64,000 bases of DNA, from NCBI GenBank assembly GCA_035459025.1, contig DATHYT010000045.1, forward strand, positions 13,171 through 77,170, written 5' to 3'. The notes beneath the pieces are model-generated. The model made no database searches, was not told the origin of the DNA, and worked only from the letters and a program-made list of their open reading frames with translations. This DNA comes from Burkholderiales bacterium (GTDB lineage: Bacteria; Pseudomonadota; Gammaproteobacteria; Burkholderiales; SG8-39). Of the stretch, positions 24,495 to 57,720 are shown piece after piece (position 1 is the first letter of the stretch; each line of letters opens with the position of its first letter). The position numbers were made by a program, and so were the translations under genes.

Positions 24495-24537
24495 CGCGAT
24501 CAATCCGCGGCCGCGCGCCGGGCATATACTTGCGCGC

Positions 24538-27500
24538 ATGGGCGCGAGAAAGAAAGGCGACGACGCCGATCTCGTGACGCGCATCGCGCGCGCGGCGCGC
24601 GGCAGCCTGGCACCGGCGCACGCCGATCTCGCCGAGCGCTTCGCGCGCCTGTACTACGCCGGCGCCGACGCGCGCGAGCTCGCCGAGCGCGACCCGAAGG
24701 ACCTAATCGGCGCGGCCGCAGCCCACCTCGAGCTCGGGCGCCGCTTCGACGATGGCGCCGCCAAGGTGCACGTGTTCAACCCCCGGCGCGAAGAGCACGG
24801 CTGGCAGAGCACGCATACGGTGGTGCAGGTGGTGGGCGCCGACATGCCGTTCCTGGTCGACTCGACGACCGTCGAGGTGAACCGGCTCGGGCTCACGCTG
24901 CACCTCGTTCTCCACCCGGTGCTGCGCGTGGTGCGCGATGCGCAGGGACGCTTGCAGGAGGTCGCGCCGCCGGCCGCCGGCGCCGATGGACGGCTGGAGT
25001 CGTTCATGCACCTGGAGGTCGACCGCCAGACCGATGCCGCGCGCCTGCAGGAGATCGAGCAGGGACTGGCGCGGGTGCTGGCCGACGTGGCCGCCGCAGT
25101 GGCCGACTGGAAAGCCATGCAGCAGCGCCTACGCGAGCGGGTCGACGAGCTCGGCGCGGCCCAGCCGCCGCTCGACGCGGCCGAGGCGCGCGAGGCGCAG
25201 GCGTTCCTTGCCTGGCTCCTCGACAACCACATGACGCTGCTCGGCTATCGCGATTACGACCTCGTCACCGAGAACGGCGAGGACGTGCTGCGCGTGGTGA
25301 AGGGCTCGGGCCTGGGCATCCTGCGCGAGCGTGCGGACACCACCGTCTCGACGAGCTTCGCCACGCTGCCGCCGGAGACGCGCGCGCGCGCGCGCCAGCC
25401 CGAGATCCTGGTCCTGTCCAAGGCCAATACGCGCGCCACCGTGCACCGCCCCGGCTACCTCGACTACGTCGGCGTGAAGCGCTTCGACGCCGAAGGGCGC
25501 GTGGTCGGCGAGCGCCGCATCCTCGGTTTGTACACCCACACCGTATACACGGCGAACCTCGACACGATCCCCGTCGTGCGGCGCAAGGTGGCGCACGTTC
25601 GCGAGCGCGCCGGGTTCCTGCCGGCGAGCCACAACGGCAAGGCGCTCGCTTCGATCCTCGAGGACTACCCGCGCGACGAACTGATGCAGATCGAGCCCGA
25701 CGAGCTCTACGCGCACGCCATCGCCATCCTGCAGCTCGGCGAGCGCCAGAGGACGCGCCTGCTGGTGCGGCGCGACGCGTTCGGTCGCTTCGTCACCTGC
25801 CTGGTGTTCGTGCCGCGCGACAAGTACAACACCGAGCAGCGCACCCGGTTCCAGCAGATCCTCGCCGAGGCGTTCAACGGCACGGCGGCCGAGTTCACCG
25901 TGAGCCTGTCGGAAGCGCCGCTTGCGCGCGTGTTCATGGTGATCCGCACCCGCCCGGGGACCGTGCCCGAGCTGGACGTGCGCGAGCTCGAGGAGCGGAT
26001 CGTCGCCGCCACGCGGCGCTGGGAGGACGACCTGCAGTCACTGCTCATCGAGCGCTTCGGCGAGGAGCAGGGCAACCGCCTGCACGCGCGCTACGGCGCG
26101 GCCTTCCCCGCGGGCTATCGCGAGGCGAACGACGTGCGCGGTGCGCTGGTCGACGTCGAGATGATGAATACGCTTGGCGCGCCGCCGGCACTCGGCATGA
26201 ACCTGTACCGGCCGCCGGCCAGCGAGCCCGGCACGCTGCGCTTCCGGCTGGTGCGCACCGGCGCGCCGCCGGTCCTGTCGGACGCGCTGCCGATCCTCGA
26301 GAACCTCGGCCTGCGCGTGCTCGACGACCGACCCTACCGCATCGACCCCGCGGGCGGCGACACGGTGTGGATCCTCGATTTCGGCCTCGCGCTGCGCGGC
26401 GAGGCCGAGGTGGCGCTGGATCGCGTGCGGCCGCTGTTCCACGAGGCGTTCGAGGCCATGTGGAACGGCTGGGTCGAGCCCGACAGCCTGAACCAGCTGG
26501 TGCTGGCGGCCGAGCTCTCGGCGCGCAGCATCGCGCTGCTGCGGGCCTACAGCCGCTACCTGCGCCAGGCGGGGTTCACCTTCAGCCTCGACTACGTGCA
26601 GCAGTCGCTGGTCGCGCACGCGGCGCTGTCGCGCGCACTGGTGCGGCTGTTCCATGCGCGCTTCGAGCCCGGGCAGGCGTCCGCCGAACGCGAGCAGGCG
26701 CTGGTACGCGAGATCGAGACCGCGCTGGAGCAGGTGCCCAGCCTGGACGACGACCGCATCCTGCGCCAGTTCCTCGCCGCGATCCGCGCCACCACGCGCA
26801 CCAACGCCTTCCAGAGCGCTGCCGGCGGCGGCCGCAAGACCTACCTCTCGCTCAAGTTCGATCCGCGCGAGGTGCCGGGGCTGCCCGAGCCGCGGCCGAT
26901 GTTCGAGATCTTCGTCTACTCGCCGCGCGTCGAGGGCGTGCACCTGCGCGGCGGGCCGGTGGCGCGCGGGGGCCTGCGCTGGTCGGACCGGCGCGAGGAC
27001 TTCCGCACCGAGGTGCTCGGGCTGATGAAGGCGCAGATGGTCAAGAACGCGGTCATCGTGCCGGTCGGCTCCAAGGGCGGCTTCGTGCTCAAGCGCGCGC
27101 CGCCGCCGGGCGACCGCGAGGCGCTGATGCAGGAAGGCGTCGAGTGCTACAAGATCTTCCTGCGGGGCTTGCTCGACATCACCGACAACCTGGTCGGCGG
27201 CAAGCCGCGGCCGCCCGCGCAGGTCGTGCGCCATGACGGCGACGACCCGTACCTGGTGGTGGCCGCCGACAAGGGCACCGCAACCTTCTCCGACATCGCC
27301 AACGGGGTGGCGCAGGAGTACGGCTTCTGGCTCGGCGATGCGTTCGCCTCGGGCGGCTCGGCGGGCTACGACCACAAGAAGATGGGCATCACCGCGCGCG
27401 GCGCCTGGGAATCGGTCAAGCGCCATTTCCGCGAGCTCGGCCGCGACACGCAATCGCAGCCGTTCACCGCGGCGGGGATCGGCGACATGTCGGGCGACGT

Positions 27501-41504: not shown

Positions 41505-43415
41505 TCAGTCCGGGAGGCCTGCAGACCGTAATTCGCCAATGACGCGGTCGAGCACCGCTTGATCGCGATAGGGCTCCTGCGCCGCGTGCCGCGCAAGCGA
41601 GAAGTCCGGCGCGAGACCCGCGACCTCGCCCGCAATGCGCCGCGCATCTGCTGCCCAGCCGCCGCGCACCAGCGCGCTCGCGAGGATCAGCCGACAGTTG
41701 ACCGCCTGCGGGGCGATCCGCAGCCCCTCCTGCGCGGCGCTGACTGCGAAATCCATCTGACCGCCCTCCCGGTAGGCGGCGGCGAGAATTTCGACAAACC
41801 AAGGTGGATAGACTGGGGAATAGCGAATCGCATGCCTGATGTGCGTCAAGGCCGCATCCGGCTCGCCGCAGTGCAGGAGCACGTTGGCGAGAAAACCGTT
41901 CGCGTTGGTGCAGTTCGGCCGTATGACGGCAGCCTCGCGCGCGATGGCAAGCGCCTCGTCGAACCTGCGCTGCAGTAGCCGGACGTTTCCGAGCACCGTG
42001 TGCGCCTGGCCGTCGGCGTCTGCCATGCCGACCGCCCGCTCCGCCCACTCGCCGGCGGCAGCGCGCGCCCGCTCCGGATCACTGCTCCAGCCTCGCGTCA
42101 CCTCGAACCACAGGCACATCGCCATCCACGAGGGCCCGTGCGACGAACCAGGCGCCAGCTCGACCACCCGCTCGAAACAGGCGCGCGCGGCCGCCATCGA
42201 TTCCTTGTTCATCTGGAAGAAGGCCTGCATGCCGCGATAGAACTGATCGCGTGATTTCGGCACAGTCAGGCATTTGTGCCAGATCCGCGCCTGCTCGCCG
42301 CTCGCCAGCTTCACGTCAAGTGCGGTAACCACTCGCGCCGCGATCTCGTCCTGGAGTTCGAACGTGTGATCGAGCGCCCGGTCGTACCGCTCGGACCATG
42401 TCACCGTGCCGGCAGTCGTGTCGGTGAGTTGCACGTTCACCCGCACGCGTTCGCCTTGGCGCTGCACAGCACCTTCGAGCGCATTACGCACGCCCAGACG
42501 CCGCGCAGCTTCGGCGGCATCGACGCCGCGCAGGGCATTGGCGGACCCCGCCGCGATCAGGAACACGCCCGGCATCTTGACGAGCGCGTTCTGAATGTCC
42601 ATGCGCAGTCCGTCGGCGAGCGCGGCGGTGTCGGGGTCCTGGCCGGTGCAGGAAAACGGCAGCAGCACGATCGATGGCCGATCGGGGAGCGGCAGCGCGA
42701 CGGACTCGAGTTGCGCCGGAACGGGCCGTGACCCGACCGGCACCTCGCCTTCGGCTAGCGCGAACAACCCAGGCTCCACTGCCGACAGAAGATATCCCGC
42801 GTCGTCCGGAAGCTGGGCATGCACCGCCTCCGTCAAGCGAATCCCGTCTGTCGGGGCGCGCCGCACGATCGATGCCGCGCGCTCGAGCGTTGCCCTGGGG
42901 GGCGACAGGTCGGCCTGGCCGGGTTTCCCCAAATCGAGCCCGAACCGGTAATGCACGTGCTCTGCCGGAGGCAACGCCGCGTTGGCGCGCGCAAGCGCGC
43001 TGCGCGCGCCAATTGCGCAGGCCAGCGCTTGCGCCGCGGTATCGAACACCGCGAGGAGCGCGTCGGCCGGCGCCACCCCAAGCCGGCCGCCATGCTCGCC
43101 GACAGTGGCGACGAGCACCTGTCGCGCGCGCGCGACCGCGCCACGTGCCGCTCGCACGTCCTCTCCCATGAGGATGCCAAATGCACGCAATTCTCCGTGC
43201 AGAACGACAGTGGTGCCGGAAAGCGCGCGCGGCACCGTCTGCGCCACCGGGCCAATCGCTGCAGCCGTTTGCGGGTGCGTCTTACGGTCGACCCACTTAT
43301 CCCAGAAATACCAGGCGGCCGCGATGCCGCCGAGGACCGTTGCTATGGTAAGCACCACCTCCATCCGTATTCGCCCCCTGTTTGCACGTCGCCTTCGATT
43401 GCGAGGCCAATTCAA
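41505..43415 (-). CDS. membrane-anchored protein: degenerate class III cyclase-homology-like region, then a TolB-N-like segment and TPR repeats
   Basis: 636 aa; start at 43415, or ATG 43364 (MEVVLTIATVLGG...). The TolB-like pattern PSIVLLPFSCTGQDPDTAALADGLRMDIQNAL...ALEGAVQRQGERVRVNVQLTDT..G.V.WSERYD is typical of 'adenylate cyclase-TPR' proteins. The C-terminal half is TPR-like. The cyclase-like part lacks the usual FxDIxGFT metal-Asp and the N/R catalytic pair. Confidence 0.6.
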   Translation of the reverse strand: MNWPRNRRRRANRGRIRMEVVLTIATVLGGIAAAWYFWDKWVDRKTHPQTAAAIGPVAQTVPRALSGTTVVLHGELRAFGILMGEDVRAARGAVARARQVLVATVGEHGGRLGVAPADALLAVFDTAAQALACAIGARSALARANAALPPAEHVHYRFGLDLGKPGQADLSPPRATLERAASIVRRAPTDGIRLTEAVHAQLPDDAGYLLSAVEPGLFALAEGEVPVGSRPVPAQLESVALPLPDRPSIVLLPFSCTGQDPDTAALADGLRMDIQNALVKMPGVFLIAAGSANALRGVDAAEAARRLGVRNALEGAVQRQGERVRVNVQLTDTTAGTVTWSERYDRALDHTFELQDEIAARVVTALDVKLASGEQARIWHKCLTVPKSRDQFYRGMQAFFQMNKESMAAARACFERVVELAPGSSHGPSWMAMCLWFEVTRGWSSDPERARAAAGEWAERAVGMADADGQAHTVLGNVRLLQRRFDEALAIAREAAVIRPNCTNANGFLANVLLHCGEPDAALTHIRHAIRYSPVYPPWFVEILAAAYREGGQMDFAVSAAQEGLRIAPQAVNCRLILASALVRGGWAADARRIAGEVAGLAPDFSLARHAAQEPYRDQAVLDRVIGELRSAGLPD

Positions 43416-43454
43416 TCAGAAGCGGGCGCAGATCGCCATACGCTGTCGGCTAGA

Positions 43455-46400
43455 ATGCGGTCTTTCCGCCGGCAAATCCCCCTCTTGAAGCAGGAACAGA
43501 TTCCCGCCGACGCCATCGTCATTCGCGGCGCGCGCCAGAACAATCTCAAGAACCTGACGCTGACGCTGCCCGCGGGCGAGCTGATCGTGGTGACCGGCGT
43601 TTCGGGCTCGGGCAAGTCCTCCCTCGTCTTCGACACCGTCTACGCCGAGGGCCAGCGCCGCTACGTCGAGACCTTCAGCCCCTACGCGCGCCAGTTCCTA
43701 GAGCGCATGGACAAGCCGCAGGTGGATGCCGTGGAGGGCATCCCGCCGGCCATCGCCATCGACCAGACCAACCCGGTGCGCACCTCGCGCTCCACGGTCG
43801 GCACCATGACCGAGCTGAACGACCACCTTAAGCTGCTCTACGCGCGCGCGGCCCAGCTGCACTGCCGCGGCTGCGGCAAGCCGGTGCGCCGCGACACGCC
43901 GCAGTCGATCTACGCCGCGCTGCCGCAGGACAGGGTGACGATCACGTTCCCGGTGCCGGTGCCGAAGAACTTCTCTGAAAAGGAAGTGGAAGCGCTCCTG
44001 CAGCGCCAGGGCTACACCAAGCTGCACTCACGCTCCAAGACCCTGATCGAAGTAGTGCAGGACACCGTGACCCCGGGGAAGTCCGAGAAGTCGCGGGTAA
44101 TGGACGCCATCGAATCTGCCCTCCGGTTTGGGCAAGGGCGTTTGGTTGCCTACGCTGAAGGTATCGTCGGTTCGGTTTCAAATACATCTGCCGACTTGGC
44201 CGGAAGAATCACCCGGCCAGGTCGGCAGACCCTAGGAGACCCAACGGAGGCACTGCGGTTTTCTACGGCTCTGCATTGCCCGGACTGCGATCTCACCTAT
44301 TCCGACCCCACCCCGGCGCAGTTCTCCTTCAACTCCCCGCTCGGCGCCTGCGACACCTGCCGCGGCTTCGGGCGCGTGATCGGCGTCGACTACGGGCTGG
44401 TGATTCCGGACGAGTCGAAGACGCTGCGCGAGGGCGCGATCCGGCCCTGGCAGACGCCGAGCTTCAAGGAATGCCAGGACGACCTGGCGAAGTACGCGAA
44501 GAAGCGCGGCCTGTCGCTCGACGTCCCGTGGCGCGAGATGAAGGACGCCGACCGCCGCTGGGTGATCGACGGCGACGACGGCTGGGTGAGCTGGAAGAAG
44601 TCCTGGCCCGGCAAGTGGTACGGCGTGGCGCGATTCTTCAAGTGGCTGGAGTCGAAGGCCTACAAGATGCACATCCGCGTGCTGCTCTCCAAGTATCGCG
44701 CGTACACGGAGTGCACGGCCTGCAACGGCACGCGCCTGAAGCCCGACGCGACGTTGTGGAAGCTCGCCGGCAAGTCGATCCACGAGCTGATGCTGATGCC
44801 GGTGAGCGACGTGCAGCGCCTGTTCGGCGGCCTCGAGCTGCCCAGGCCGCTCGACGAGGCCACCGACCTTCTGCTCGGCGAGATCCGCACGCGCCTGGCC
44901 TACCTGGGCGAAGTGGGTCTGGGCTACCTCACGCTCGACCGGCAGTCGCGCACCCTTTCCGGCGGCGAGGTGCAGCGGATCAACCTGACCACGGCGCTCG
45001 GCACTTCGCTGGTGAATACGCTCTTCGTGCTCGACGAGCCTTCCATCGGCCTGCACCCGCGCGACATGGGGCGCGTGATCGACGTGATGAAGAAGCTGCG
45101 CGACGCGGGCAACTCGCTCGTCGTCGTCGAGCACGACCCGCAGATCATGCTGGCCGCCGACCGCATCCTCGACATGGGCCCGGGCCCCGGCGAGCGCGGC
45201 GGCGAGATCGTGTTCTTCGGGGATCCGGCCGAACTGCGCAAGAAGGACACGCTCACCGCGCAGTACCTGTCGGGGCGCAAGCGCACCGAGGCGCCGCGCG
45301 CCCCGCGCGCGCCGGCGAAGTTCGTCACGGTGCGCGGCGCGTCCGAGCACAACCTCAAGGATATCGACGTCGCTTTCCCGCTGGAGCGCCTGGTGTGCGT
45401 GACGGGCGTCTCCGGATCGGGCAAGTCCACGCTGGTGCAGGACGTGCTCTACGCCGCGCTGCGCAAGGCGAAGGGCAAGCCGACCGAGACGCCCGGAAGG
45501 CACCGCGCGCTTGAAGGTGCCGAGCTCGTGGGCGACGTCGTCATGGTGGATCAGTCGCCGATCGGCAAGACCACGCGCTCCAATCCGGCAAGCTACGTCG
45601 GCGCCTTCGACGCCATTCGCGACCTGTACGCCAAGGCGCCAGTGGCGAAAGAGCGCAAGTACACCGCGGGTACCTTCAGCTTCAACTCGGGCCACGGCCG
45701 CTGCCCGGCCTGCGGCGGCAACGGCTTCGAGCACGTCGAGATGCAGTTCCTCTCCGACGTCTACCTGCGCTGCCCGGACTGCAACGGCAAGCGCTACCGG
45801 CCCGAGGTGCTCGAGGTGGCGCTGCGCGGCAAGAGCATCGCCGATGCGCTGGAGATGACGGTGTCTGCGGCCCTCGTGTTCTTCGAGGACCACGCCGAGG
45901 TCCTCGCGCGGCTGCGGCCCCTGGCCGACGTCGGCCTGGATTACCTGCGCCTCGGCCAGCCGGTGCCGACCCTTTCAGGCGGCGAAGCGCAGCGCCTCAA
46001 GCTTGCCGGGCACCTGACGCTGAAGGCCGGAGAGGAGCGCAAGCTCTTCCTGTTCGACGAGCCGACCACCGGCCTGCACTTCGAGGACATCGCGAAGCTG
46101 CTGCGCGCGTTCCGCCAGCTCATCGCGGCCGGGCACTCGCTGGTCGTCATCGAGCACAACCTCGACGTGATCCGCGCCGCCGACTGGATCCTCGACCTCG
46201 GTCCCGAGGGCGGCGCCGCGGGCGGCGAGCGGGTGTGCGCAGGAACGCCTTCGGAGGTGATGCGGCACGCGACGTCGCACACCGCGAAAGCGCTGCGCGA
46301 CTATGAAAAGGGGACAGACCTCATTTCCTTGAAATCAAAGGACAGGGAAATGAGGTCTGTCCCCAATATACGCATCCACAACGCACGCGAGCACAACCTC

Positions 46401-48965
46401 AAGTCGATCGACGTCGACATCCCGCGCCAGCGCTTCACGGTGGTGACCGGGGTGTCGGGCTCGGGCAAGTCCACGCTCGCCTTCGACATCCTGTTCTCCG
46501 AGGGCCAGCGCCGCTACCTCGAGTCGCTGAACGCCTATGCGCGCCAGTTCGTGCAGACCGCCGCGCGGCCCGATGTCGACGCCATCTACGGCATCCCGCC
46601 GACCGTCGCCATCGAGCAGCGCACCAGCCGCGGCGGCCGCAAGAGCACCGTCGGCACGCTCACCGAGATCCACCATTTCCTGCGGCTCCTTTTCGTCAAG
46701 CTCGGCACGCCGCACTGCCCCGACTGCGACGTGGCGATCGAACCGCAGAGCGAGGACGCGATCGCCGCGCGCCTGATGAAGGCGCACCGCAACGACACCG
46801 TGGTGTTGCTCGCGCCGCTCGTCGTCAACCGCAAGGGCGTCTACACCGACCTCGCGAAGTGGGCCGCGTCCAAGGGCTACTCGCAGCTGCGCGTGGACGG
46901 CAAGCTCCTGCCGCTGCGGCCCTTTCCGCGCCTCGACCGCTTCAAGGAGCACACCATCGAGCTGCCGGTCGGCTACGTGAAGGTGACGCCGAGGAACGAG
47001 AAGGAGCTGCGCGAGCGGCTCACGCGCGCCCTCGAGCACGGCAAGGGCGTGGTGCATGTGCAGACCGGGAAGCACATCCAGGTCTACTCCACCAAGCGCG
47101 CCTGCCCCTCGTGCGGGCGCAGCTTCCAGGAGCTCGACCCGCGCCTCTTTTCGTACAACTCGCGCCACGGCTGGTGCCCGAGCTGCGTCGGCACCGGGTT
47201 GCAGCTGAAGGACGTGGGCTGGGACGCGGAGCGCTCGCGCACGGGGCAGGAAGACCACGTGCTCGACTCGTGGCTCGAGTGGCTGGAAGTGGACGAAGCC
47301 TGCCCCGCCTGCGAGGGCAAGCGCCTCAATCCCGAGGCGCTCGCCGTGCGCTGGCGCGGCCGGAGCATCGCCGACTACGGCATGCAGCCGGTGGCGCAGC
47401 TCACCGAGCTGTTCGCGAAGGTGAAGCTGGAGGGCCGCAGCGCCGAGATCGCGCGCGACCTCGTCGCCGAGCTGAGGAGCCGCCTCGGCTTCCTGAAGGA
47501 AGTCGGCCTCGACTATCTCGCGCTCGACCGCGCCGCGCCCACGCTCTCGGGCGGCGAGGCGCAGCGGATCCGGCTGGCCGCCCAGCTCGGCTCCAACCTG
47601 CGCGGCGTGTGCTACATCCTCGACGAACCGACCATCGGCCTGCACCACCGCGACAACCGGATCCTCCTCGATGTGCTGGAAAAGCTCGAGGCCAAGGGCA
47701 ACACCCTGGTGGTCGTGGAGCACGACGAGGACACCATCCGCCGCGCGCACCACGTCATCGACCTCGGCCCGGGCGCGGGCAAGCAGGGGGGCCGCGTCAT
47801 CGCCGAAGGCACCGCCGACGAACTGGTGCAGTCTCCCGAGTCCGTCACCGGGCGCTTCCTCGCCCACCCCTTGCGCCACCCGCTGCAGCCGCGCCGCCGC
47901 GTGGCGAAGGACGCGCCGGCGCTCGAGATCGGCGGCGCCTCGATGCACAACCTGAAACGCATCGACGTGCGCATACCGATCGCGCGCCTCAGTGCCATCA
48001 CCGGCGTCTCCGGCTCGGGCAAGTCGACGCTCGCGCGCGACGTGCTGCATGACAGCCTGAAGGCGGGCGGCCCCATCGGCTGCAAGACCCTGAAGGGCCG
48101 CAAGCTCGTCGAGCGCGTGCTCGAAGTCGACCAGGCGCCGATCGGCAAGACCCCGCGCTCCTGCCCCGCAACGTACGTGGGCTTCTGGGACGCGATCCGG
48201 CGCCTGTTCGCCGACACGAGCGAAGCGCGCATCCGCGGCTGGGGCCCGAGCCGCTTTTCCTTCAACACCAAGGGCGGGCGCTGCGAGACCTGCGAGGGCC
48301 AGGGCCTGAAGAGAATCGAGATGAGCTTCCTGCCCGACGTGAAGGTGGCATGCGAAGCCTGCAACGGCCTGCGCTTCAACGCCGAAACGCTCGGCGCGCA
48401 CCTGCGCGGCAAATCGGTGGGCGACGTCCTGGCGATGAGCGTCGACGAGGCGGTGGAGTTCTTCGCCGCGCATCCGTCGATCAATCATGCGCTGAGGTTG
48501 CTGCAGGACGTGGGGCTCGGCTACCTCACGCTCGGGCAGCAGAGCCCGACGCTGTCAGGAGGAGAGGCGCAGAGGATCAAGCTTGTCACGGAATTGGCGA
48601 AGGTAAGGGAGCTCGGGGGTTCTACACATCTCCCGTCTCCCGCTTCTTCCTTTGGGAGACGGGAGACAGCGGTTAAAGGCGCAAAAACACTCTACGTCCT
48701 CGACGAACCCACCGTAGGCCTGCACATGGCCGACGTCGAAAAGCTGATCCGCGTGCTGCACCGCCTGGTCGACGCCGGCAACACGGTGGTCGTGGTCGAG
48801 CACAATCTTGACATCATCGCCGAAGCCGATTGGCTGATCGACCTCGGCCCCGAAGGGGGCGACGCCGGCGGCAAGGCCGTCTACCAGGGTTCGCCCGAGC
48901 GCGCTTCCCGAGGCCACACCGCGCAGGCGCTGAACGCGTTCCTCGCGGAGCGCAAGGCCGCGTGA
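43455..48965 (+). CDS. tandem-duplicated UvrA-like excinuclease ATPase (two complete UvrA modules in one 1836-aa chain: 4 ABC NBDs, 6 zinc modules)
   Basis: ORF 42819..48965(+). The first 212 codons overlap the divergent neighbouring gene and are junk, so the start is taken at in-frame ATG 43455 (a downstream TTG is also possible). Module 1: [25 protein letters not shown] ... LSGGEVQR ... [11 protein letters not shown] ... [11 protein letters not shown]...DEPTTGLH ... [12 protein letters not shown]. Module 2: [25 protein letters not shown] ... [11 protein letters not shown] ... [11 protein letters not shown] ... [11 protein letters not shown]...DEPTVGLH. All CxxC zinc-module pairs are present in both modules. 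Confidence 0.9.
   Translation: [1836 protein letters not shown]
44187..44229. repeat. in-frame hairpin element A inside uvrA module 1 (17-bp stem, 9-nt loop)
   Basis: TCTGCCGACTTGGCCGG / CCGGCCAGGTCGGCAGA gives 16 Watson-Crick pairs plus one G-T. It is embedded in a low-GC patch (about 44150-44260) encoding about 25 residues that are absent at the equivalent place in module 2. Confidence 0.8.
46310..46364. repeat. in-frame REP-like palindrome B forming the inter-module linker of the fused UvrA (19-bp perfect stem, 17-nt loop)
   Basis: GGGGACAGACCTCATTTCC (46310-46328) and GGAAATGAGGTCTGTCCCC (46346-46364) are perfect reverse complements. The core GGGACAGACCTCATTT is shared with the palindrome at 56764-56830. 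Confidence 0.95.
48629..48666. repeat. in-frame hairpin element C inside the last NBD of uvrA module 2 (13-bp perfect stem, 12-nt loop; each arm is a tandem 7-mer)
   Basis: TCTCCCGTCTCCC (48629-48641) pairs with GGGAGACGGGAGA (48654-48666). The arms are TCTCCCG x2 and GGGAGAC x2. It lies in a low-GC patch that adds about 23 residues between the ABC signature and Walker B. Confidence 0.85.
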
Positions 48966-49852
48966 GCGCGCTTCCCCCGCCGCGGCGCGCGGTCGCGCTG
49001 GCGCTGATGGTCGTGGCGCCGGTGCTGTGGAGCACCGCGGGGGTGCTTTCGCGCCTGATCCAGTCCGCGGGCGCCTTCGAGATGGCGTTCTGGCGCTCGA
49101 GCATCGCCGCCGTGTTCGTGTTCACCGCGCTCTCGCTGCTGCAGGGCGGGCGGCCCTTCGCCACCCTGCGCGCGGCGGGCCTCCCCGGCCTGATCTCCGG
49201 CGCCATGTGGGCGGTGATGTTCACCTGCTTCATCGTCGCGCTCACGCTCACCACCGTCGCCAACGTCCTGGTGGTGTCGAGCCTGGGCCCGCTTTGCACC
49301 GCGCTGCTCACCTGGCTCATGCTGCGCGAGCCGATTCCCACGCGCAGCTGGCTCGCGATCGTCGCCGCGAGCGTCGGCATGGGCGCCATGTTCGGCGCGG
49401 GGTTCACGGCCGACGACTGGAGCCACGTCGCCGGGCTCGCGCTCGCGCTCACCATCCCGATCGCGGGCGCGATCAACATCGTGGTGCTGCGAAAGAGCGG
49501 TGCGCACCTGGATCTGATGCCCGCCGTGATGCTCGGCGCGCTGATCTCGGCGGTGGTGTCGCTGCCCTTCGCGCTGCCGTTGGCCGCGAGCGGGCGCGAC
49601 CTGCTGGTGCTCGGCACACTCGGCGTGTTCCAGCTCGGCGTGCCCTGCCTGATGCTGGTGCTCGCCGCCCGCACGCTCACCGCGCCCGAAGTCGCGCTGC
49701 TCGCGCTGCTGGAGGTGGTGCTGGGGCCGCTGTGGACCTGGCTCGGTGCGGGCGAAGTGCCCGCGGGCGCGACCATCGCCGGCGGCGCCATCGTGCTCGC
49801 GGCGCTGGCGGGAAACGAGGCCGCCGCGCTCGCCGAGCGCAAGCGTGTATAA
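48962..49852 (+). CDS. EamA/DMT family transporter
   Basis: Inside ORF 48830..49852. The in-frame GTG 48962 overlaps the uvrA-like TGA (GTGA); the alternative ATG at 49006 is also in frame. About 10 TM helices in two EamA halves. Confidence 0.8.
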   Translation: MSALPPPRRAVALALMVVAPVLWSTAGVLSRLIQSAGAFEMAFWRSSIAAVFVFTALSLLQGGRPFATLRAAGLPGLISGAMWAVMFTCFIVALTLTTVANVLVVSSLGPLCTALLTWLMLREPIPTRSWLAIVAASVGMGAMFGAGFTADDWSHVAGLALALTIPIAGAINIVVLRKSGAHLDLMPAVMLGALISAVVSLPFALPLAASGRDLLVLGTLGVFQLGVPCLMLVLAARTLTAPEVALLALLEVVLGPLWTWLGAGEVPAGATIAGGAIVLAALAGNEAAALAERKRV

Positions 49853-49999
49853 TGCGCTCCAGGTTTCTGCAGCGCGTACTTCCGGTTTGCGTTTCAGTCG
49901 TTAGTCAGTCCATCCTGGACTTCGAATAACAAAGCCTAAGAGCGTCGGCCTGAACCGGTAGAAGGGTTCTCCTTCCCGGGCCGGCACCAGGAGAAAGAC

Positions 50000-51322
<1,323 letters not shown>

Positions 51323-51488
51323 CGGTCAGGACGGCAATCTTCCGCGCCGGCCGCGCAGCTTCCGCAGTTCGGCTGCAGCGGTGCCGGTGGCGGCAAGCGC
51401 CGCCGCCCCGGCGGTACCCACGCGATAGGGCGTACGCAGCACGGGGCATGCCTTGACCTGGCACACGCTCGGTTAAACTCGGGCGACC

Positions 51489-53987
51489 ATGCGCGAGCCC
51501 ACCCCGAAGACCATCTACCTCAAGGACTACACGCCGCCCGCCTTTGTCGTGCCGCACGTGGAGCTCGACGTCGACATCCGCGAGGACCACGCCCTCGTCA
51601 AGGCGAAGCTGCAGGTGAAGCGCAACGCGGGAGGCAAGGGGCCGCTGGTGCTGGACGGCGACGAGCTCGAGCTCGTGTCGGTGTCGCTGGACGGCAAGCC
51701 CGCGAAGCACGACGTCGCCCCCGACCGCCTCACGGTGCACGACGTGCCCGACGCCTTCACGCTCGAAACCGTGACGCGCATCGTGCCGCAGAAGAACACC
51801 AAGCTCGAGGGCCTGTACGCCACGAAGCACGGCTTCGTCACGCAGTGCGAGGCGGAAGGCTTTCGCCGCATCACCTGGTTCGTCGACCGCCCCGACAACA
51901 TGGCGCGCTACCTCGTCACGCTGCACGCCGACAAGGCGCGCTACCCGATTCTGCTCTCCAACGGCAACCGCACCGGCGGCGGCGACGAGGCCGGCGGGCG
52001 GCACTGGGCGGCGTTCGACGACCCGTTCCCCAAGCCCTCGTACCTGTTCGCGCTGGTGGCGGCGAACCTGGAGGAGCTGAAGGACGCGTTCGACACCCGC
52101 TCGGGCAAGCGCGCCGAGCTTTCCGTCTACGTTGAGCCCGGCAAGCTCGACCAGGCGGGCTGGGCGATGCAGTGCCTGAAGCGCGCCATGCGGTGGGACG
52201 AGCAGCGCTTCGGCCTCGAGCTCGACCTCGCGCAGTACAAGATCGTGGCGGTGGGCGACTTCAACTCCGGCGCCATGGAGAACAAGGGCCTCAACATCTT
52301 CAACACGCGCTTCGTGCTGGCGCGCCCCGACACCGCCACCGATGCCGACTACCAGGCGATCGACGCGGTGGTGGCGCACGAGTACTTCCACAACTGGACG
52401 GGCGACCGCGTCACCTGCCGCGACTGGTTCCAGCTGTCGCTGAAGGAAGGCCTCACGGTGTTCCGCGACCAGGAGTACAGCTCCGACCAGTACTCGCGCG
52501 CCGTCGAGCGCATCCAGAACGTGAGGATGCTGCGCGCCGGGCAGTTCCCCGAGGACGCGGGACCGCAGAAGCACCCGGTGCGCCCGCAGTCCTACATGGA
52601 GATCCGCAACTTCTACACCATGACCGTGTACGAGAAGGGCGCGGAGGTGGTGCGCATGCAGCACACGCTGCTGGGCGAAGCGAAGTTCCAGGCCGGGATG
52701 AAGCTGTACTTCCAGCGCCACGACGGCCACGCGGTCACCTGCGACGATTTCGTGCAGGCGATGCAGGACGCCTCGGGCGTCGACCTGTCGCAGTTCCGGC
52801 GCTGGTACGACGTCGCCGGCACGCCGGTGCTCGAGTGCGCCGGTGAGCACCGCGACGGCCGCTTCACCCTGCGCGTGAAGCAGTCGATAGACCCGCCGTT
52901 GCACATCCCGCTGGCGGTGAAGGTGGGTCCGCACGAGCGCGTCCTGCCGGTGAAACGCGCCGAGGAGACCTTTACCTTCGACGTGGCGGAGCCTGTGGTG
53001 CCGTCGCTGCTGCGCGGCTTTTCCGCTCCGGTGATCCTGAACTACCCGTACAGCGAATCCGACCTGGTGCGCCTGATGGCCGGGGACGACGATCCCTTCA
53101 ACCGCTGGGAAGCGGGCCAGCGGCTCGCCGCCGACATCATCCTCAAGCGCGGCGGCGAGCCCTCGGCCGCGTTCCTCGAGGCCGCGCGCCGCGTCCTGGC
53201 GGAAAAGGACCACGCGTTCGTCGCCGAGGCGCTCGCCCTGCCCTCGGAAGCGTTCCTCGCCGAGCAGATGGCGGTCGTCGATCCGGATGCGCTGCACGAG
53301 GCGCGCAACACCCTGCGCCGGCGGATCGCCGAGGCGCTGGAGCCGGAGCTGGCCGCGGCCTACCGCGCACTGGAGTCGCGCGCGCCGTACGCGCCCGAGC
53401 CCGCGGCGATCGGCCGGCGCGCGCTGCGCAACCTCTGCCTCGGCTACCTCGTGGAGCTGGGCCGGAGCGCGCTCGCCGACGCGCAGTTCCGCCGCGCCGA
53501 CAACATGACCGACGCCATGGCGGCGCTCGCCTGCCTGGCCAACGCCGACTGTCCCGAGCGCGAGCCGGCGCTGCAGGCGTTCTATGACAAGTGGCACGAC
53601 GAGCCGCTGGTGGTCGACAAGTGGCTCTCCGTGCAGGCCCTGTCGCGCCTGCCCGGGACGCTCGCGCGCGTGCGCGGGCTGCTCGCGCATCCGGCGTTCG
53701 ACATCAAGGTGCCGAACAAGGTGTACGCGCTGGTGCGCGCTTTTGCCGCCAACCACGTGCGCTTCCACGCCGCCGACGGTGCGGGCTATGCGTTCCTCGC
53801 CGAGCGCGTGCTCGAGCTCGACCGCCTCAATCCGCAGGTGGCGGCGCGCATGGCGCGAGGCTTCGATCGCTGGCGCAAGTTCGACGCCGCGCGCCAGGCG
53901 CTCGCCCGCGCGCAGCTCGAGCGCATCCGCGACGCGGCCGGGCTGTCGCGCGACGTGGCCGAGATCGTCGGCAAGTCGCTTGCCTGA
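51489..53987 (+). CDS. pepN: aminopeptidase N
   Basis: 832 aa. GAMEN motif (FNSGAMENKGLNIFN) and zinc motif HEYFHNWTGDRVTCRDWFQLSLKEG. Collinear with E. coli PepN along its length. Confidence 0.95.
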   Translation: MREPTPKTIYLKDYTPPAFVVPHVELDVDIREDHALVKAKLQVKRNAGGKGPLVLDGDELELVSVSLDGKPAKHDVAPDRLTVHDVPDAFTLETVTRIVPQKNTKLEGLYATKHGFVTQCEAEGFRRITWFVDRPDNMARYLVTLHADKARYPILLSNGNRTGGGDEAGGRHWAAFDDPFPKPSYLFALVAANLEELKDAFDTRSGKRAELSVYVEPGKLDQAGWAMQCLKRAMRWDEQRFGLELDLAQYKIVAVGDFNSGAMENKGLNIFNTRFVLARPDTATDADYQAIDAVVAHEYFHNWTGDRVTCRDWFQLSLKEGLTVFRDQEYSSDQYSRAVERIQNVRMLRAGQFPEDAGPQKHPVRPQSYMEIRNFYTMTVYEKGAEVVRMQHTLLGEAKFQAGMKLYFQRHDGHAVTCDDFVQAMQDASGVDLSQFRRWYDVAGTPVLECAGEHRDGRFTLRVKQSIDPPLHIPLAVKVGPHERVLPVKRAEETFTFDVAEPVVPSLLRGFSAPVILNYPYSESDLVRLMAGDDDPFNRWEAGQRLAADIILKRGGEPSAAFLEAARRVLAEKDHAFVAEALALPSEAFLAEQMAVVDPDALHEARNTLRRRIAEALEPELAAAYRALESRAPYAPEPAAIGRRALRNLCLGYLVELGRSALADAQFRRADNMTDAMAALACLANADCPEREPALQAFYDKWHDEPLVVDKWLSVQALSRLPGTLARVRGLLAHPAFDIKVPNKVYALVRAFAANHVRFHAADGAGYAFLAERVLELDRLNPQVAARMARGFDRWRKFDAARQALARAQLERIRDAAGLSRDVAEIVGKSLA

Positions 53988-53997
53988 GGGCGCGGCC

Positions 53998-55221
53998 ATG
54001 GCGACGACCGTCCTCGCCGTGTTCGCCGTCGTCTACCTGGGAATGCTGCTCGGCGGGCTGCCGTTCCTGCAGCTCGATCGCACGGGCGTGGCGCTGCTCG
54101 GCGCGATCGCGCTGGTCGCCCTCGGCGCGGTGACGCCGGCGGAGGCGGCGGGCGCGGTGCACCTGCCCACGCTGCTGCTGCTTTTCTCGTTCATGGTGAT
54201 CTCGGCGCAGATGCGCCTGGGCGGCTTCTACACGAGGGTGACGCTCGACCTCGCCGACCTGCGCGTCTCGCCGGCGGCGCTGCTCGGTCTGGTGATCGGC
54301 GTGGTCGGCGCGCTCTCGGCGGTGTTCAGCAACGACATCATCTGCCTGGCGATCGCGCCGGTGCTGGCCGACGCCTGCCTTGCGCGGCGGCTCGACCCCG
54401 TGCCCTACCTCCTTGGCCTCGCCTGCGCGGCGAACGTGGGCTCGGCCGCGACGCTGATCGGCAACCCGCAGAACATGCTCATCGGGCAGACGCTCGCGCT
54501 GTCGTTCTCGGGCTACCTGGTGGAGGCCATCGCGCCCGTGCTGCTCGGGCTGGCGGCGACCTGGGGCATCCTCGTGTGGCAGACACGCGGCCGCTGGCGC
54601 ACGGTGCTCGACGACCCGCCGCCCGAGCGCCGCGAAGACTACGCGGTGTACGACCGCTGGCAGACCGCCAAGGGCCTCGGGGTCGCGCTGGCGCTCGTCG
54701 GCGCGTTCCTCCTGTCGGACGTGCCTCGCGAAGTGGCCGCGCTCGCCGGCGCCGGGCTGCTGCTGATGAGCCGCAGGTTCCATTCGCACAAGATGCTCGG
54801 GCTGGTCGATTGGGAGCTGCTGGTGCTGTTCATCGGCCTGTTCGTCGTGAACCACGCGCTGGCGCAAACCGGGATTGCCGCCGCCGCGCTCGCCTGGCTG
54901 AGCGACGCGGGCACGCCGCTCACGGACACCGGGCCGCTGTTCCTCGCCACGCTGGTGCTGTCCAACCTCGTGTCCAACGTGCCCGCCGTGATGCTGCTGC
55001 TGCCGGCGGCGACCGAGCCGTTCTCGGGGCCGATGCTCGCGCTGGTCAGCACGCTCGCCGGCAACCTGCTCATCGTGGGCTCGATCGCGAACATCATCGT
55101 GGTCGACGCCGCGCGCCGCCGCGGCATCGCCATCGACTGGCGCACGCACGCGCGCACCGGCGTTCCGGTCGCGCTGGTCACGCTCTGCGTCACCGCGGTG
55201 TGGTTCGCGCTGCGGCACTGA
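53998..55221 (+). CDS. anion permease of the ArsB/NhaD (SLC13/citrate-transporter-like) superfamily
   Basis: In-frame ATG 53998 in ORF 53584..55221. 407 aa, polytopic. The motif GSAATLIGNPQNMLIGQ and its repeat in the second half (GNLLIVGSIANIIV) are present. Confidence 0.8.
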   Translation: MATTVLAVFAVVYLGMLLGGLPFLQLDRTGVALLGAIALVALGAVTPAEAAGAVHLPTLLLLFSFMVISAQMRLGGFYTRVTLDLADLRVSPAALLGLVIGVVGALSAVFSNDIICLAIAPVLADACLARRLDPVPYLLGLACAANVGSAATLIGNPQNMLIGQTLALSFSGYLVEAIAPVLLGLAATWGILVWQTRGRWRTVLDDPPPERREDYAVYDRWQTAKGLGVALALVGAFLLSDVPREVAALAGAGLLLMSRRFHSHKMLGLVDWELLVLFIGLFVVNHALAQTGIAAAALAWLSDAGTPLTDTGPLFLATLVLSNLVSNVPAVMLLLPAATEPFSGPMLALVSTLAGNLLIVGSIANIIVVDAARRRGIAIDWRTHARTGVPVALVTLCVTAVWFALRH

Positions 55222-55347
55222 GCGCGTCGGGCGCGCCCGACGCGCGCCGCGGTGCCGCGTAAAGCGTCACGAACGCCGGCCGGCCGGCCGACGGAGTGCG
55301 CAGTTTGTCCTTAATGTTCAGCGCGCCGAGTGGCATCGTGAGCGCGC

Positions 55348-56061
55348 TTGACCTCGCCCGACATCACCTCGCGGCTGTCGACCACCGGCCAGCTCCTCGT
55401 GCGCTCGGGGATCGAGATCGGCCGGCTGCTCGACGCGATGGCACAGGACCGCAGCGCCGTGACGGCGCAGGTGCCGCCGCAGCTGCTGTTCCTGTCGCAG
55501 CTCCTGTACGTCGAGCCGGTGCGCGGCTACATGATGCTGTCGTACTCCGACCACAAGCCCGCCAACAGCGCGGCGCTGTCGGCACGCTCGCTCACCTTCC
55601 GCTGCAACCACCGCGGCGCGCAGTTCGCGTTCACCGGCGACGGGCCGCGGCAGTCCGCGCACAAGGGGCAACCCTGCATCCAGTGCGCGTTGCCGAGCGC
55701 CGTGCTCGGCATGCAGCGGCGCGGCGCCGGCCGCGTCCAGGTGCCGGCGCAGGCGCCGGTGAGCTGCGACCTGCGCATGGGCCTGATCTCGTTCCCGGGC
55801 CGCGTGGTCGACGTCAGCCTCGACGGCATCGGCACGCTGGTCACCGACCCTGCGATCCCGCTGTGCGCCGGCACGCGGCTCGAGCGCGTGCGCATCAGCC
55901 ATCCGCAGTGCACGCCGTTCCTGATCGACTTCGAAATCCGCTACGTCACGCGCGTGGTGCTGGCCAACGGCGAGCACGCCAGCCGCATCGGCTGCCAGGT
56001 GGTCGGCGCGCGCGAGCGCCTCGAAGAGCTCATCCGGCTGTTCATCATCGACCTTGCCTGA
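55348..56061 (+). CDS. YcgR-like c-di-GMP receptor (PilZN plus PilZ domains)
   Basis: 237 aa with a TTG start as given in the track (uncertain). PilZ signature RRxxxR (QRRGAGRVQV) and D/NxSxxG (DVSLDGIG). Confidence 0.75.
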   Translation: MTSPDITSRLSTTGQLLVRSGIEIGRLLDAMAQDRSAVTAQVPPQLLFLSQLLYVEPVRGYMMLSYSDHKPANSAALSARSLTFRCNHRGAQFAFTGDGPRQSAHKGQPCIQCALPSAVLGMQRRGAGRVQVPAQAPVSCDLRMGLISFPGRVVDVSLDGIGTLVTDPAIPLCAGTRLERVRISHPQCTPFLIDFEIRYVTRVVLANGEHASRIGCQVVGARERLEELIRLFIIDLA

Positions 56062-56070
56062 CGCGGGGCG

Positions 56071-56766
56071 GTGCCCGAGAATCCGGGCACCGTGGACTCG
56101 ACGCTGTACCTGATCCTCGCCACGCTGCTGTTCCTGGGCATCCACGCGCTGCCCGCGACGCGACTGCGCGCGGCTGCCGTGCGCGCGCTCGGCGAGGGCG
56201 CCTACCAGGGCCTGTTCTCGCTCGCCTCGCTCGCCACGCTCGTCTGGATGAGCCTGGAGTACGAGCGCGCGCCCTTCGAAGGGCTGTGGCCGGGACTGCG
56301 CCTGGTGCCGATTGCGGTGCTGCCGGTGGCCTTCGTGCTCGTCGCCTGCGGCGCCCTCGCCCGCAACCCTACCGCGGCGGGCCAGGCCGGCGCGCTCCGC
56401 CAGGAGGACCCGGCGCGCGGCATCATCCGCGTCACGCGCCACCCGGTGATGTGGGCCATCATGCTGTGGGCGGGCGCGCACCTGCTCGCCATCGGCTCGC
56501 TGCAGGCGGTGATCTTCTTCGGCGGGCTGCTGCTGCTCGCCGCCGCCGGCACCACGTTGCAGGACGCGCGCAAGGCAGCGCAGCTCGGCGAGGACTGGAA
56601 GCGTTTCGCCGCACTCACCTCGAACCTGCCGTTCATGGCGATCGCGCAGGGGCGCAACCGCGTCGTCTGGCGCGAGATCGGCTGGTGGCGGCCCGCCGTC
56701 GGCCTGGTCGCGTTTGCCCTGCTACTCGGGCTGCACGCCTGGCTGTTCGGCGTGCGGCCGTACTAA
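56071..56766 (+). CDS. NnrU family membrane protein
   Basis: 231 aa with a GTG start. 5-6 TM helices and the motif RVTRHPVMWAIMLWAGAHLL, typical of NnrU. Confidence 0.7.
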   Translation: MPENPGTVDSTLYLILATLLFLGIHALPATRLRAAAVRALGEGAYQGLFSLASLATLVWMSLEYERAPFEGLWPGLRLVPIAVLPVAFVLVACGALARNPTAAGQAGALRQEDPARGIIRVTRHPVMWAIMLWAGAHLLAIGSLQAVIFFGGLLLLAAAGTTLQDARKAAQLGEDWKRFAALTSNLPFMAIAQGRNRVVWREIGWWRPAVGLVAFALLLGLHAWLFGVRPY

Positions 56767-56830
56767 ATAGGGACAGACCTCATTTTTCTTTTCACATCGC
56801 GAAAAGAAAAATGAGGTCTGTCCCTATTTA
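56764..56830. repeat. 67-bp perfect palindrome (30-bp arms, 7-nt loop), REP-like element and candidate bidirectional terminator
   Basis: TAAATAGGGACAGACCTCATTTTTCTTTTC acatcgc GAAAAGAAAAATGAGGTCTGTCCCTATTTA. The left arm starts with the TAA of the NnrU-like gene. The right arm contains the stop (complement 56824-56826) and the last two codons of the convergent dehydrogenase gene. Confidence 0.95.
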
Positions 56831-57720
56831 GCGGGCAGGTCGAGGCTGGCGAGCGCCGCGTAGACCTTGACGACGGCGGCGTCGTCCTCCAGGCCGTGGC
56901 CCTGCGCCGCGGCGGCGAGGTAGAGCTGGTGCGCGGTCGCGGTGAGCGGCAGCGGAAAGCCGAACTTCTTCGCCGTGTCGAGCACGATGCCGAGATCCTT
57001 GACGAAGATGTTCACCGCCGAGAGCGGCGTGTAGTCGCCCGCCAGGATGTGCGGCACGCGGTTCTGGAACATCCACGAGGACCCGGCGCTGTTCGAGATC
57101 ACCTCGTAGAGCGTCTTCGGGTCGGCGCCGGCGCGCATGCCGAGCGCCATCGCCTCGCAAGCCGCCGCGATGTGCACGCCCGCGAGCAGCTGGTTGATCA
57201 TCTTCACCTTCGAGCCGGGCCCGGGACGATCGCCCAGCCGGTACACCTTCGCCGCGATCGCCGCCAGCACCGGCTCGCACCTCGCGAACGCTTCCGGCGC
57301 GCCCGAGGCCATGATGGTCATCTCGCCCGCGGCGGCCTTCGCCGCGCCGCCCGAGACCGGCGCGTCGATCATCAGCAGGCCCATCCGCTCGAGCCGCGCG
57401 CCGAGCTGCTCGGCGACGTCCGGCGCCAGCGTCGCGCTCGACACCACGACGGCTCCCTTCCTCATCGCGGCCGCGGCGCCCTGCTCGCCGAACAGCACCT
57501 TCTCGGTCTGCTCGGCGTTGACCACCAGGATCACCACCACTTCGCACGCGGCACCAAGGGCCGCCGGCGTGGCCGCCGCCTTCGCGCCCTGCGCGACGAA
57601 CGCCTTTACCACGTCGGCGCGCACGTCGTAGACGTGCGTCTCGAACTTCTTCGCCAGCAGCGACTTCGCCACGCCGCCGCCCATCGAGCCCAGCCCGATC
57701 ACGCCGACCGCAGTCATCAC
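56824..57720 (-). CDS. NAD(P)-dependent beta-hydroxyacid dehydrogenase family protein (3-hydroxyisobutyrate dehydrogenase-like)
   Basis: 298 aa. Shows GVIGLGSMGGGVAKSL, DAPVSGG and GPGSKVKMINQLL motifs. Confidence 0.85.
   Translation of the reverse strand: MMTAVGVIGLGSMGGGVAKSLLAKKFETHVYDVRADVVKAFVAQGAKAAATPAALGAACEVVVILVVNAEQTEKVLFGEQGAAAAMRKGAVVVSSATLAPDVAEQLGARLERMGLLMIDAPVSGGAAKAAAGEMTIMASGAPEAFARCEPVLAAIAAKVYRLGDRPGPGSKVKMINQLLAGVHIAAACEAMALGMRAGADPKTLYEVISNSAGSSWMFQNRVPHILAGDYTPLSAVNIFVKDLGIVLDTAKKFGFPLPLTATAHQLYLAAAAQGHGLEDDAAVVKVYAALASLDLPAK

Follow-up and report, generated by a model that had tools for sequence, protein, structure and literature searches.

A dispersed palindromic repeat forms the in-frame linker of a fused UvrA-UvrA protein and has been acquired there repeatedly as lineage-specific variants

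In a 64,000-nucleotide stretch of the genome of a Burkholderiales bacterium (contig DATHYT010000045.1; this whole stretch is the window below, and coordinates refer to it unless a relative's locus is named), two complete UvrA modules are encoded in one open reading frame (ORF), and a palindromic DNA element occupies the linker between them. The coordinates of the features are collected in Table 1. A single open frame, 42819-48965, contains the linker palindrome; the coding start is the ATG at 43455 or, by homology with relatives, the TTG at 43485, and the ~210-codon 5' extension of the open frame (42819-43454) lies outside the gene, the relatives starting at the position of that TTG. UvrA equivalog profiles match both halves of the product end to end, four Walker A sites are found in the ORF, and each module has two ABC ATPase sites, making this a fused double UvrA. 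In a PDB alignment, module 1 matches residues 22-971 of 974 of M. tuberculosis UvrA and ends in ...SHTAKALR. Fused (tandem-duplicated) UvrA paralogues are reportedly termed class III UvrA in the literature on nucleotide excision repair; the protein described here is similar to these in having two UvrA modules in one polypeptide, of which module 1 aligns with a full-length UvrA.

The linker palindrome (55 bp, 46310-46364) has two arms of 19 nt that are exact reverse complements of each other at a spacing of 17 nt, just as an earlier note on this DNA, made without database searches, had described: a perfect 19-bp stem with a 17-nt loop inside the ORF. A repeat finder extends the arms to 22 nt (95% identity, 11-nt loop), and the one mismatch in the extended arms is a U.G pair on the sense strand. 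GC content drops sharply across the element, as had also been claimed, to 0.47-0.50 versus about 0.62-0.82 in the surroundings. Since there is no stop codon in the reading frame, this copy is translated as a spacer of ~19 aa, KGTDLISLKSKDREMRSVPN, between both UvrA modules. The earlier note had placed the linker between normal UvrA ends; the modules do flank the palindrome, but the N-terminal lead of module 2 ancestrally held ...EPAGRYLGN, which has now been replaced.

The predicted RNA fold of the linker region has an energy of -47.4 kcal/mol versus -19.9 +/- 3.3 in 200 shuffles (z = -8.3), and perfect arms of 19 nt are vastly beyond what chance would produce. An assembly artefact would have to appeal to the general possibility of fold-back artefacts in metagenome assemblies, but independent JGI, ENA, and NCBI assemblies all show palindromes of the same family at this position, and we consider the probability that the palindrome is a chance feature or an artefact to be negligible. 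A terminator scan called neither the linker palindrome nor the intergenic palindrome discussed below as an intrinsic terminator; the tails following the two are AATATA and TATTTAG, i.e. there is no T-run of a rho-independent terminator. A search of Rfam 15 found no family at gathering score, with only sub-threshold look-alikes of miRNA hairpins at the intergenic palindrome.

Table 1. Locations of the features described, in window coordinates except where the locus of a relative is named.
Feature	Location	Strand	Details
Fused uvrA-uvrA gene, two complete UvrA modules in one ORF	43455..48965	+	Profile matches; 120 full-length fused homologues, 1548-1911 aa
UvrA module 1, ending ...SHTAKALRDYEK	43455..46309	+	NCBIfam UvrA profile positions 4-938 of 943
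Site A, module 1 hairpin	44187..44229	+	17-bp arms with one U.G, loop aagaatcac; -39.9 kcal/mol, z = -8.4
Left arm of linker palindrome, GGGGACAGACCTCATTTCC	46310..46328	+	Extends to 46331 with one U.G pair
Linker hairpin loop	46329..46345	+	17 nt; 11 nt with extended arms
Right arm of linker palindrome, GGAAATGAGGTCTGTCCCC	46346..46364	+	Holds in-frame ATG 46350-46352, unconserved in relatives
UvrA module 2, first residues IRIHNAREHNL	46368..48962	+	UvrA profile match; one codon past right arm
Site D, module 2 hairpin between ABC signature and Walker B	48629..48666	+	13-bp arms, 12-nt loop; z = -3.4
Intergenic member of repeat family, 69 bp	56763..56831	.	31-nt perfect arms; repeat finder and 16-mer matches
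Site B dimers in relatives	L098 12563-12615; L102 12530-12582; L109 2581-2640; L103 8556-8602; L104 9720-9763; L116 3723-3769		
L098 linker palindrome, left arm			GGGGACGGACCTCAATTTTTCGC
L099 linker palindrome, left arm			ATAGGGTCTGACCCCATT
L100 linker palindrome, left arm			GGGGACAGTCCCCATTATT
L101 linker palindrome, left arm			GGGGACAGACACCGTTTCCCG
L108 linker palindrome, left arm			GGGGACAGACACCATTGCCCG
L102 linker palindrome, left arm			GGGGACTGTCCCTATTTGCAC
L141, L142, L145 linker palindromes			GCGGTTGGCGGTT...-type arms, 19-30 nt
L152 linker palindrome			CTGGCGACTGGC...-type arms, 31 nt
L149 linker palindrome			40-nt arms around GGGGACAGATCTATTTTCC

The palindrome belongs to a repeat family. 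The 16-mer core GGGACAGACCTCATTT has four exact matches in the window, namely both linker arms and both arms of the intergenic palindrome, and five matches when up to three mismatches are allowed, versus 0.14 expected by chance. The recurrence of the core in the intergenic palindrome therefore stands as the earlier note reported it, although that element is 69 bp long rather than 67 bp. The family unit is AAAT-GGGNCNGNCCC-ATTT, and the linker element is a head-to-head dimer of this unit. Units of the form GGGGAC-N-GTCCCC or GGGGTC-N-GACCCC with AAAT/ATTT flanks occur singly and as dimers, and in this they are short stem-loops (stem 5-13 bp) of the type of repetitive extragenic palindromic (REP) sequences. 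In the window's own variant, a single unit no longer self-pairs and only the dimer pairs.

We scanned one genome per species for the core. Lone 16-mer matches in unrelated phyla were rejected as chance (~280 are expected in 596 Gb), and therefore only paired plus- and minus-strand matches were used; these make up whole palindromes of 38-109 bp. Among the matches listed, full palindromes lie on many contigs of the betaproteobacterial metagenome-assembled genomes (MAGs) JAQBXT01, JAABQT01, DAIBBI01 (a Ferrovaceae MAG), JAJZRV01, and JAOTWE01, with the consensus TAAATrGGGACAGACCTCATTTTTCTCATTTGC...GCAAATGAGAAAAATGAGGTCTGTCCCyATTTA. Together with the second copy in the window, these bear out the suggestion of a dispersed repeat family. 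Long open frames that run across intergenic copies in high-GC MAGs were not accepted as genes. The intergenic copy in the window sits between the convergent ORFs 56071-56766 (+) and 56828-57547 (-) and holds both of their stop codons in its ends, and the intergenic copy at 24530-24588 of the relative's locus L098 likewise overlaps the stop codons of convergent genes. The family is dispersed in Burkholderiales-type betaproteobacteria, and its typical copies appear to lie between convergent genes and to overlap both stop codons. In two other MAGs (L002 888-925 and L007 6024-6061), a short dimer with the same core lies near the 5' end of a homologous ORF (...GTDLISxEMRSVPF...LYxLYEGAEK...); these could be copies in the 5' untranslated region or at the N-terminus, with a possible start at the arm's ATG.

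Two inverted REP-type units making up a long hairpin are the structure of a REPIN, the REP pair that is mobilised by a RAYT transposase (Bertels and Rainey 2011, PMC3116915). Similar to REPINs, the family described here has inverted units and a long hairpin, is dispersed and apparently mostly extragenic, and occurs as genome-specific variants. Unlike REPINs, it has no GTAG tag, and its mobility is suggested only by identical copies on one contig (L098). The unpaired GTAG or CGTC end tag of the REP superfamilies is missing from the element, which is flanked by AAAG/AAAT...AAT/ATTT instead. Neither does it resemble a miniature inverted-repeat transposable element (70-300 bp, with terminal inverted repeats, a non-palindromic interior, and a target-site duplication), the members here being 38-109 bp and palindromic throughout. 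Shorter than such elements, the family acts like a REP dimer and is REPIN-like, but falls outside the tagged REP families. A separate, classically GTAG-tagged REP, GTAGGGTGGGCCAaTGGCCCACCCTAC, is found outside uvrA in the flanks of two relatives (L098 17925-17951 and L100 6143-6171).

The age of the fusion relative to the palindrome was assessed in 90 DNA loci, made up of the best 80 of 560 relatives from a metagenome scan (61-90% identity) and 10 from an exact protein look-up, as well as in the protein homologues, of which the 120 best were used (73-100% identity; those named come from Burkholderiales MAGs). All 120 homologues are fused (1548-1911 aa), and the uvrA-uvrA junction is open and fused in 90 of the 90 DNA loci. 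Relatives at 61-76% identity have a non-palindromic linker, ...REYE-x-K/A-I/F-...-EPAGRYLGN-AIRIHNAREHNL, and a non-palindromic EPAGRYLGN linker is also present in some relatives at 82-86% identity (e.g. P0015, P0024, and P0034). The ancestral non-palindromic linker is ...KIGEAPAPRAAEPAGRYLGN, and in the window the palindrome stands in place of its EPAGRYLGN tail. The palindrome thus came long after the uvrA-uvrA fusion.

The earlier note had offered two readings of the junction: a repeat inserted into an existing linker, or two tandem uvrA genes that became fused by read-through of an intergenic REP. Because all loci are fused and relatives exist with a non-palindromic linker, the first of these is supported and the second is not. 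Read-through is conceivable mechanically, since intergenic copies of the family hold a TAA in their TAAAT flank and abut stop codons, and a one-base change could open the frame. Nevertheless, an unfused tandem uvrA pair is found in none of the 90 DNA loci and none of the 120 best protein matches, the fusion is common to relatives down to 61% identity with unrelated non-palindromic linkers, and the palindrome occupies the place of a conserved ancestral tail. Fusion by read-through of a repeat is hardly credible in light of this, the fusion being far older than the palindrome. Aligning the junctions of orthologues, as the earlier note had proposed, showed all of them open and fused, with non-palindromic linkers in distant relatives and variant palindromes in close ones.

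Eight close relatives have DNA palindromes at the same spot of the linker, with arms that differ between them (Table 1). In the alignment of these eight linkers, the 19 pairs of the window's stem are 98% paired and 11 of them have changed on both sides, which none of 500 shuffles matches. The linker peptide varies accordingly between relatives (GTDLIS..MRSVP, GTVPII..MGTVP, and GSDPII..MGSDP). Among protein homologues, the linker peptide allows perfect arms of 19 nt or more in 20 of the 40 close ones, 2 of the 78 distant ones, and 0 of 118 shuffled controls. This back-translation test has a high background, shuffled linkers reaching 17 nt, so that arms of at least 19 nt were counted, and it misses imperfect palindromes such as that of P0002. 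Palindromic and ancestral EPAGRYLGN linkers are interleaved in a neighbour-joining protein tree, and as EPAGRYLGN would not plausibly be regained, several independent replacements are implied.

The number of units at the linker varies as well. Many relatives have a single unit only, at the left of the linker, for example L107 with AAAATAGGGACAGTCCCTATTTCT, encoding K-I-G-T-V-P-I-S, and this unit is itself a mini-palindrome; the L103 linker contains three or four of them. Over 24 nt (~26 nt with flanks), the linker arms of L098 match an intergenic dimer 11.6 kb downstream exactly, and only the 3-nt loop differs. The variant of this relative, GGGGACGGACCTCAAT, occurs three times in one 25-kb locus (~10672-10700, 12883-12937, and 24530-24588), twice inside uvrA and once between convergent genes; besides the linker, it recurs as a single unit at site A of uvrA, described below. 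The identity between the linker and intergenic copies of L098 therefore points to recent copying between loci, by transposition or gene conversion, rather than to slow drift in situ alone. Distant fused relatives (62-68% identity) have palindromes of unrelated sequence in the same linker, with arms of 19-40 nt.

The variation among relatives also bears on a further proposal of the earlier note, that the ATG in the right arm is an internal start, placed where a stand-alone uvrA would begin; module 2 would then also be made as a separate UvrA of ~95 kDa. The ATG is indeed present and in frame, six codons before IRIH, and 6 nt upstream of it the loop contains a purine-rich AAGGA. Nevertheless, the codon is not conserved, being ATA in L102 and L109 and TTG in L098 (three of the eight relatives); AAATR is the flank consensus of the repeat family itself; the ATG is buried in the 19-bp stem; and a promoter scan of 43000-57500 (14.5 kb) found no promoter-like site, with terminator-like sites at chance level. 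We find a functional internal start very improbable.

The linker is not the only place in the gene where a hairpin is translated in frame. At site A in module 1, the 17 pairs of the stem are 100% paired across 8 relatives, 10 having changed on both sides (0 of 500 shuffles), and the loop aagaatcac is near-constant while the stem changes. At site D in module 2, the 13 pairs are 100% paired across 11 relatives, 7 having changed on both sides (0 of 500 shuffles). As in the linker, the peptides encoded by the hairpins at A and D drift while the stems remain paired. Sites A and D have an arm motif in common, ATCTSCCGWCTT, and D resembles A; no copy of this motif was found elsewhere in the window or in any flank searched. 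The possibility that the hairpins at A and D are GTAG/CGTC REPs was rejected, as the CGTC of D is part of the stem and not an unpaired tag, and stems and loops are of the wrong size. A fourth site, B, is present in some relatives in the module-1 loop equivalent to D and holds dimers of the GGGAC/GGGTC family; in the window it is empty (GHLTLKAGEERK). All four sites (linker, A, B, and D) are insertions relative to the distant relatives P0052 and P0058. Large palindromes of unrelated families are also seen in loops B and D of L127, L124, L137, and L152.

Palindromes are concentrated in this gene. Across 14 close loci, the density of perfect palindromes (arms of 12 nt or more) is 0.43 per kb inside the gene versus 0.07 per kb in the flanks, a difference of about 6-fold. 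Of the GGGAC-family dimers, 10 lie in 296 kb of uvrA versus 2 in 531 kb of flanks. The flank dimers that were checked (window 56763 and L098 24530) are both intergenic.

With regard to the gene more generally, Pfam accessory domains in the window's gene (43455-48965) are distributed unevenly, with the UvrA_DNA-bind match in module 1 only and the best UvrA_inter (UvrB-binding) match in module 2, which hints at a division of labour inside the fused dimer. In relatives, a divergent NfeD-type gene lies upstream of the fused uvrA.

Taken together, the observations establish a dispersed palindromic repeat in the inter-module linker that is in frame, postdates the fusion, was gained time and again, and retains complementary arms even though its peptide varies. 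The explanation that we favour, and consider probable, is that a dispersed REP/REPIN-like dimer inserted in frame into the linker of an anciently fused UvrA-UvrA, and did so recurrently, as genome-specific variants. Transposition or gene conversion would have copied the element into the linker, probably with an older resident single unit (peptide K-I-G-T/S-V/D-P) as the seed, which is still at that spot in many relatives, and acquisition would have been repeated in different lineages, each with that genome's own variant. Complementarity of the arms may be maintained by template switching from arm to arm, by conversion from other copies, by selection for the hairpin, or by a combination of these. 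In the protein, the insert is most likely a neutral flexible spacer; in the RNA, it would present ribosomes with a hairpin of -47 kcal/mol to melt, which may affect translation or mRNA decay.

Several points weigh against this explanation. Only two copies of the family are present in the 64-kb window. There is no direct sign of mobility, as no target-site duplication, nor any direct repeat other than the palindromic flanks, was found at 46300-46370 or 56755-56840, and transposases were not searched for. Simple tolerance of insertions fails to account for the density of palindromes in this gene. Additionally, the hairpins at A and D, for which no dispersed family was seen, covary as strongly as the linker, which is no less compatible with selection on structure than with neutral maintenance.

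These last points lead to a rival explanation that overlaps the favoured one, in which the hairpins are selected nucleic-acid features of the gene and the repeat family is their raw material. Such hairpins might slow ribosomes at the domain boundaries of a 200-kDa protein, affect the half-life or processing of the mRNA, or act as DNA hairpins or cruciforms recognised by a protein. In its favour, the window has three in-frame hairpins, and some relatives four, whose positions are conserved; every one falls in a loop or linker insertion, and all three window sites covary strongly, with 98-100% pairing. The loop of site A is near-constant above a changing stem, and the density of palindromes in the gene is 6-9 times that of the flanks. 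Distant relatives have also gained unrelated palindromes in the same linker and loops, and no neutral explanation exists for the excess of REPs that has been published for uvrA and other repair genes. In a sense-strand wobble test, the six stem mismatches at the three sites comprise three G.U, one C.A, and two others, and the three G.U pairs would suit selection on the RNA, but this sample is far too small to decide. Selection is harder to reconcile with the many close and most distant relatives that have no linker palindrome and appear intact, and with linker arms, loops, and lengths that vary freely between relatives. Moreover, template switching between arms, together with conversion from other copies, as the identity in L098 illustrates, can keep arms perfect without selection.

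Template switching is known to be able to form stems and keep them intact in the absence of selection (Monttinen and Loytynoja, bioRxiv 10.1101/2021.04.15.439925). Similar to such template-switch (quasipalindrome) mutation, which also affects coding sequences (PMC8604942), both arms here change together and the stem remains perfect, within coding sequence; template switching is, however, a mutational mechanism and not a family of elements. On the question of neutral maintenance versus selection, the data fit either, and the covarying hairpins at A and D and the enrichment in the gene keep a functional reading alive at a low level of confidence. As an account of the whole pattern, hairpins selected as such seem to us possible but unlikely.

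A further reading goes beyond tolerance and holds that UvrA-type genes are specifically targeted by, or selected to carry, hairpin-forming repeats, which we regard as doubtful and of rather low probability. Under it, the distortion-binding UvrA-like product could, for example, sense hairpins or cruciforms in its own gene or mRNA, providing autoregulation; alternatively, the hairpins could couple uvrA expression to the state of the hairpin-processing or replication machinery. If true, such targeting would explain why three to four covarying in-frame hairpins persist at fixed sites, why repeat families of unrelated sequence have come to occupy the same linker in distant lineages, and why, across bacteria, an ORF tagged by a REP so often turns out to be uvrA or another repair gene.

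The insertion of a REPIN-like dimer into the linker, as we favour it, can be compared with REPs and other palindromic elements already known from inside genes. Intragenic REPs cluster in DNA replication and repair genes, which the authors who reported it doubted to be fortuitous (Di Nocera, De Gregorio and Rocco 2013, BMC Genomics 14:522; PMC3733652). In that study, the uvrA of Thioalkalivibrio and both uvrA genes of Opitutus terrae have two REP inserts each, the repair genes that carry REPs are in many cases the sole ORFs of their genome to do so, REP ends give stop codons to neighbouring ORFs, and most copies lie between convergent or co-directional genes. Similar to those intragenic REPs, which encode 20-30 aa, the element described here is a short palindromic repeat or head-to-head dimer inside an ORF. 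It differs from them in having AAAT/ATTT flanks and no unpaired GTAG or CGTC tag, and in that its host is a fused double UvrA with the insert exactly in the inter-module linker. The comparison of orthologues, with recurrent acquisition and covariation of the arms, is made here and was outside the scope of that study.

Rickettsia palindromic elements (RPEs; Ogata et al. 2000), as they are summarised in PMC10969869, are the classic in-frame palindromic inserts, found in functional genes at positions compatible with the fold of the protein, to which they add a peptide. In-frame insertion into a functional ORF is likewise seen here. Going by that summary, RPEs are ~100-150 bp, encode a peptide conserved within the family, and belong to reduced alphaproteobacterial genomes, whereas the element described here is 55 bp with a variable peptide, in a free-living betaproteobacterium of 70% GC.

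REP inserts in uvrA are thus already known; what is added here is the copy in the linker of a fused UvrA, the three to four recurring sites, and the arms kept complementary across relatives. We found no description of a repeat-encoded linker in a fused UvrA in the literature searched. The case offers a clean, datable example of selfish or structural palindromic DNA turning into protein sequence: a repeat that normally lies behind stop codons is now the entire tether of a fused repair protein of 200 kDa, and has become so repeatedly, in variants specific to each lineage. The orthologues form a series from no unit to a single unit, a dimer, and multimers, and together with the two gene-specific covarying hairpins they amount to a natural experiment on whether hairpins inside ORFs are kept by selection or by template switching. 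The same series addresses the question, raised in 2013, of why intragenic REPs concentrate in uvrA and other repair genes.

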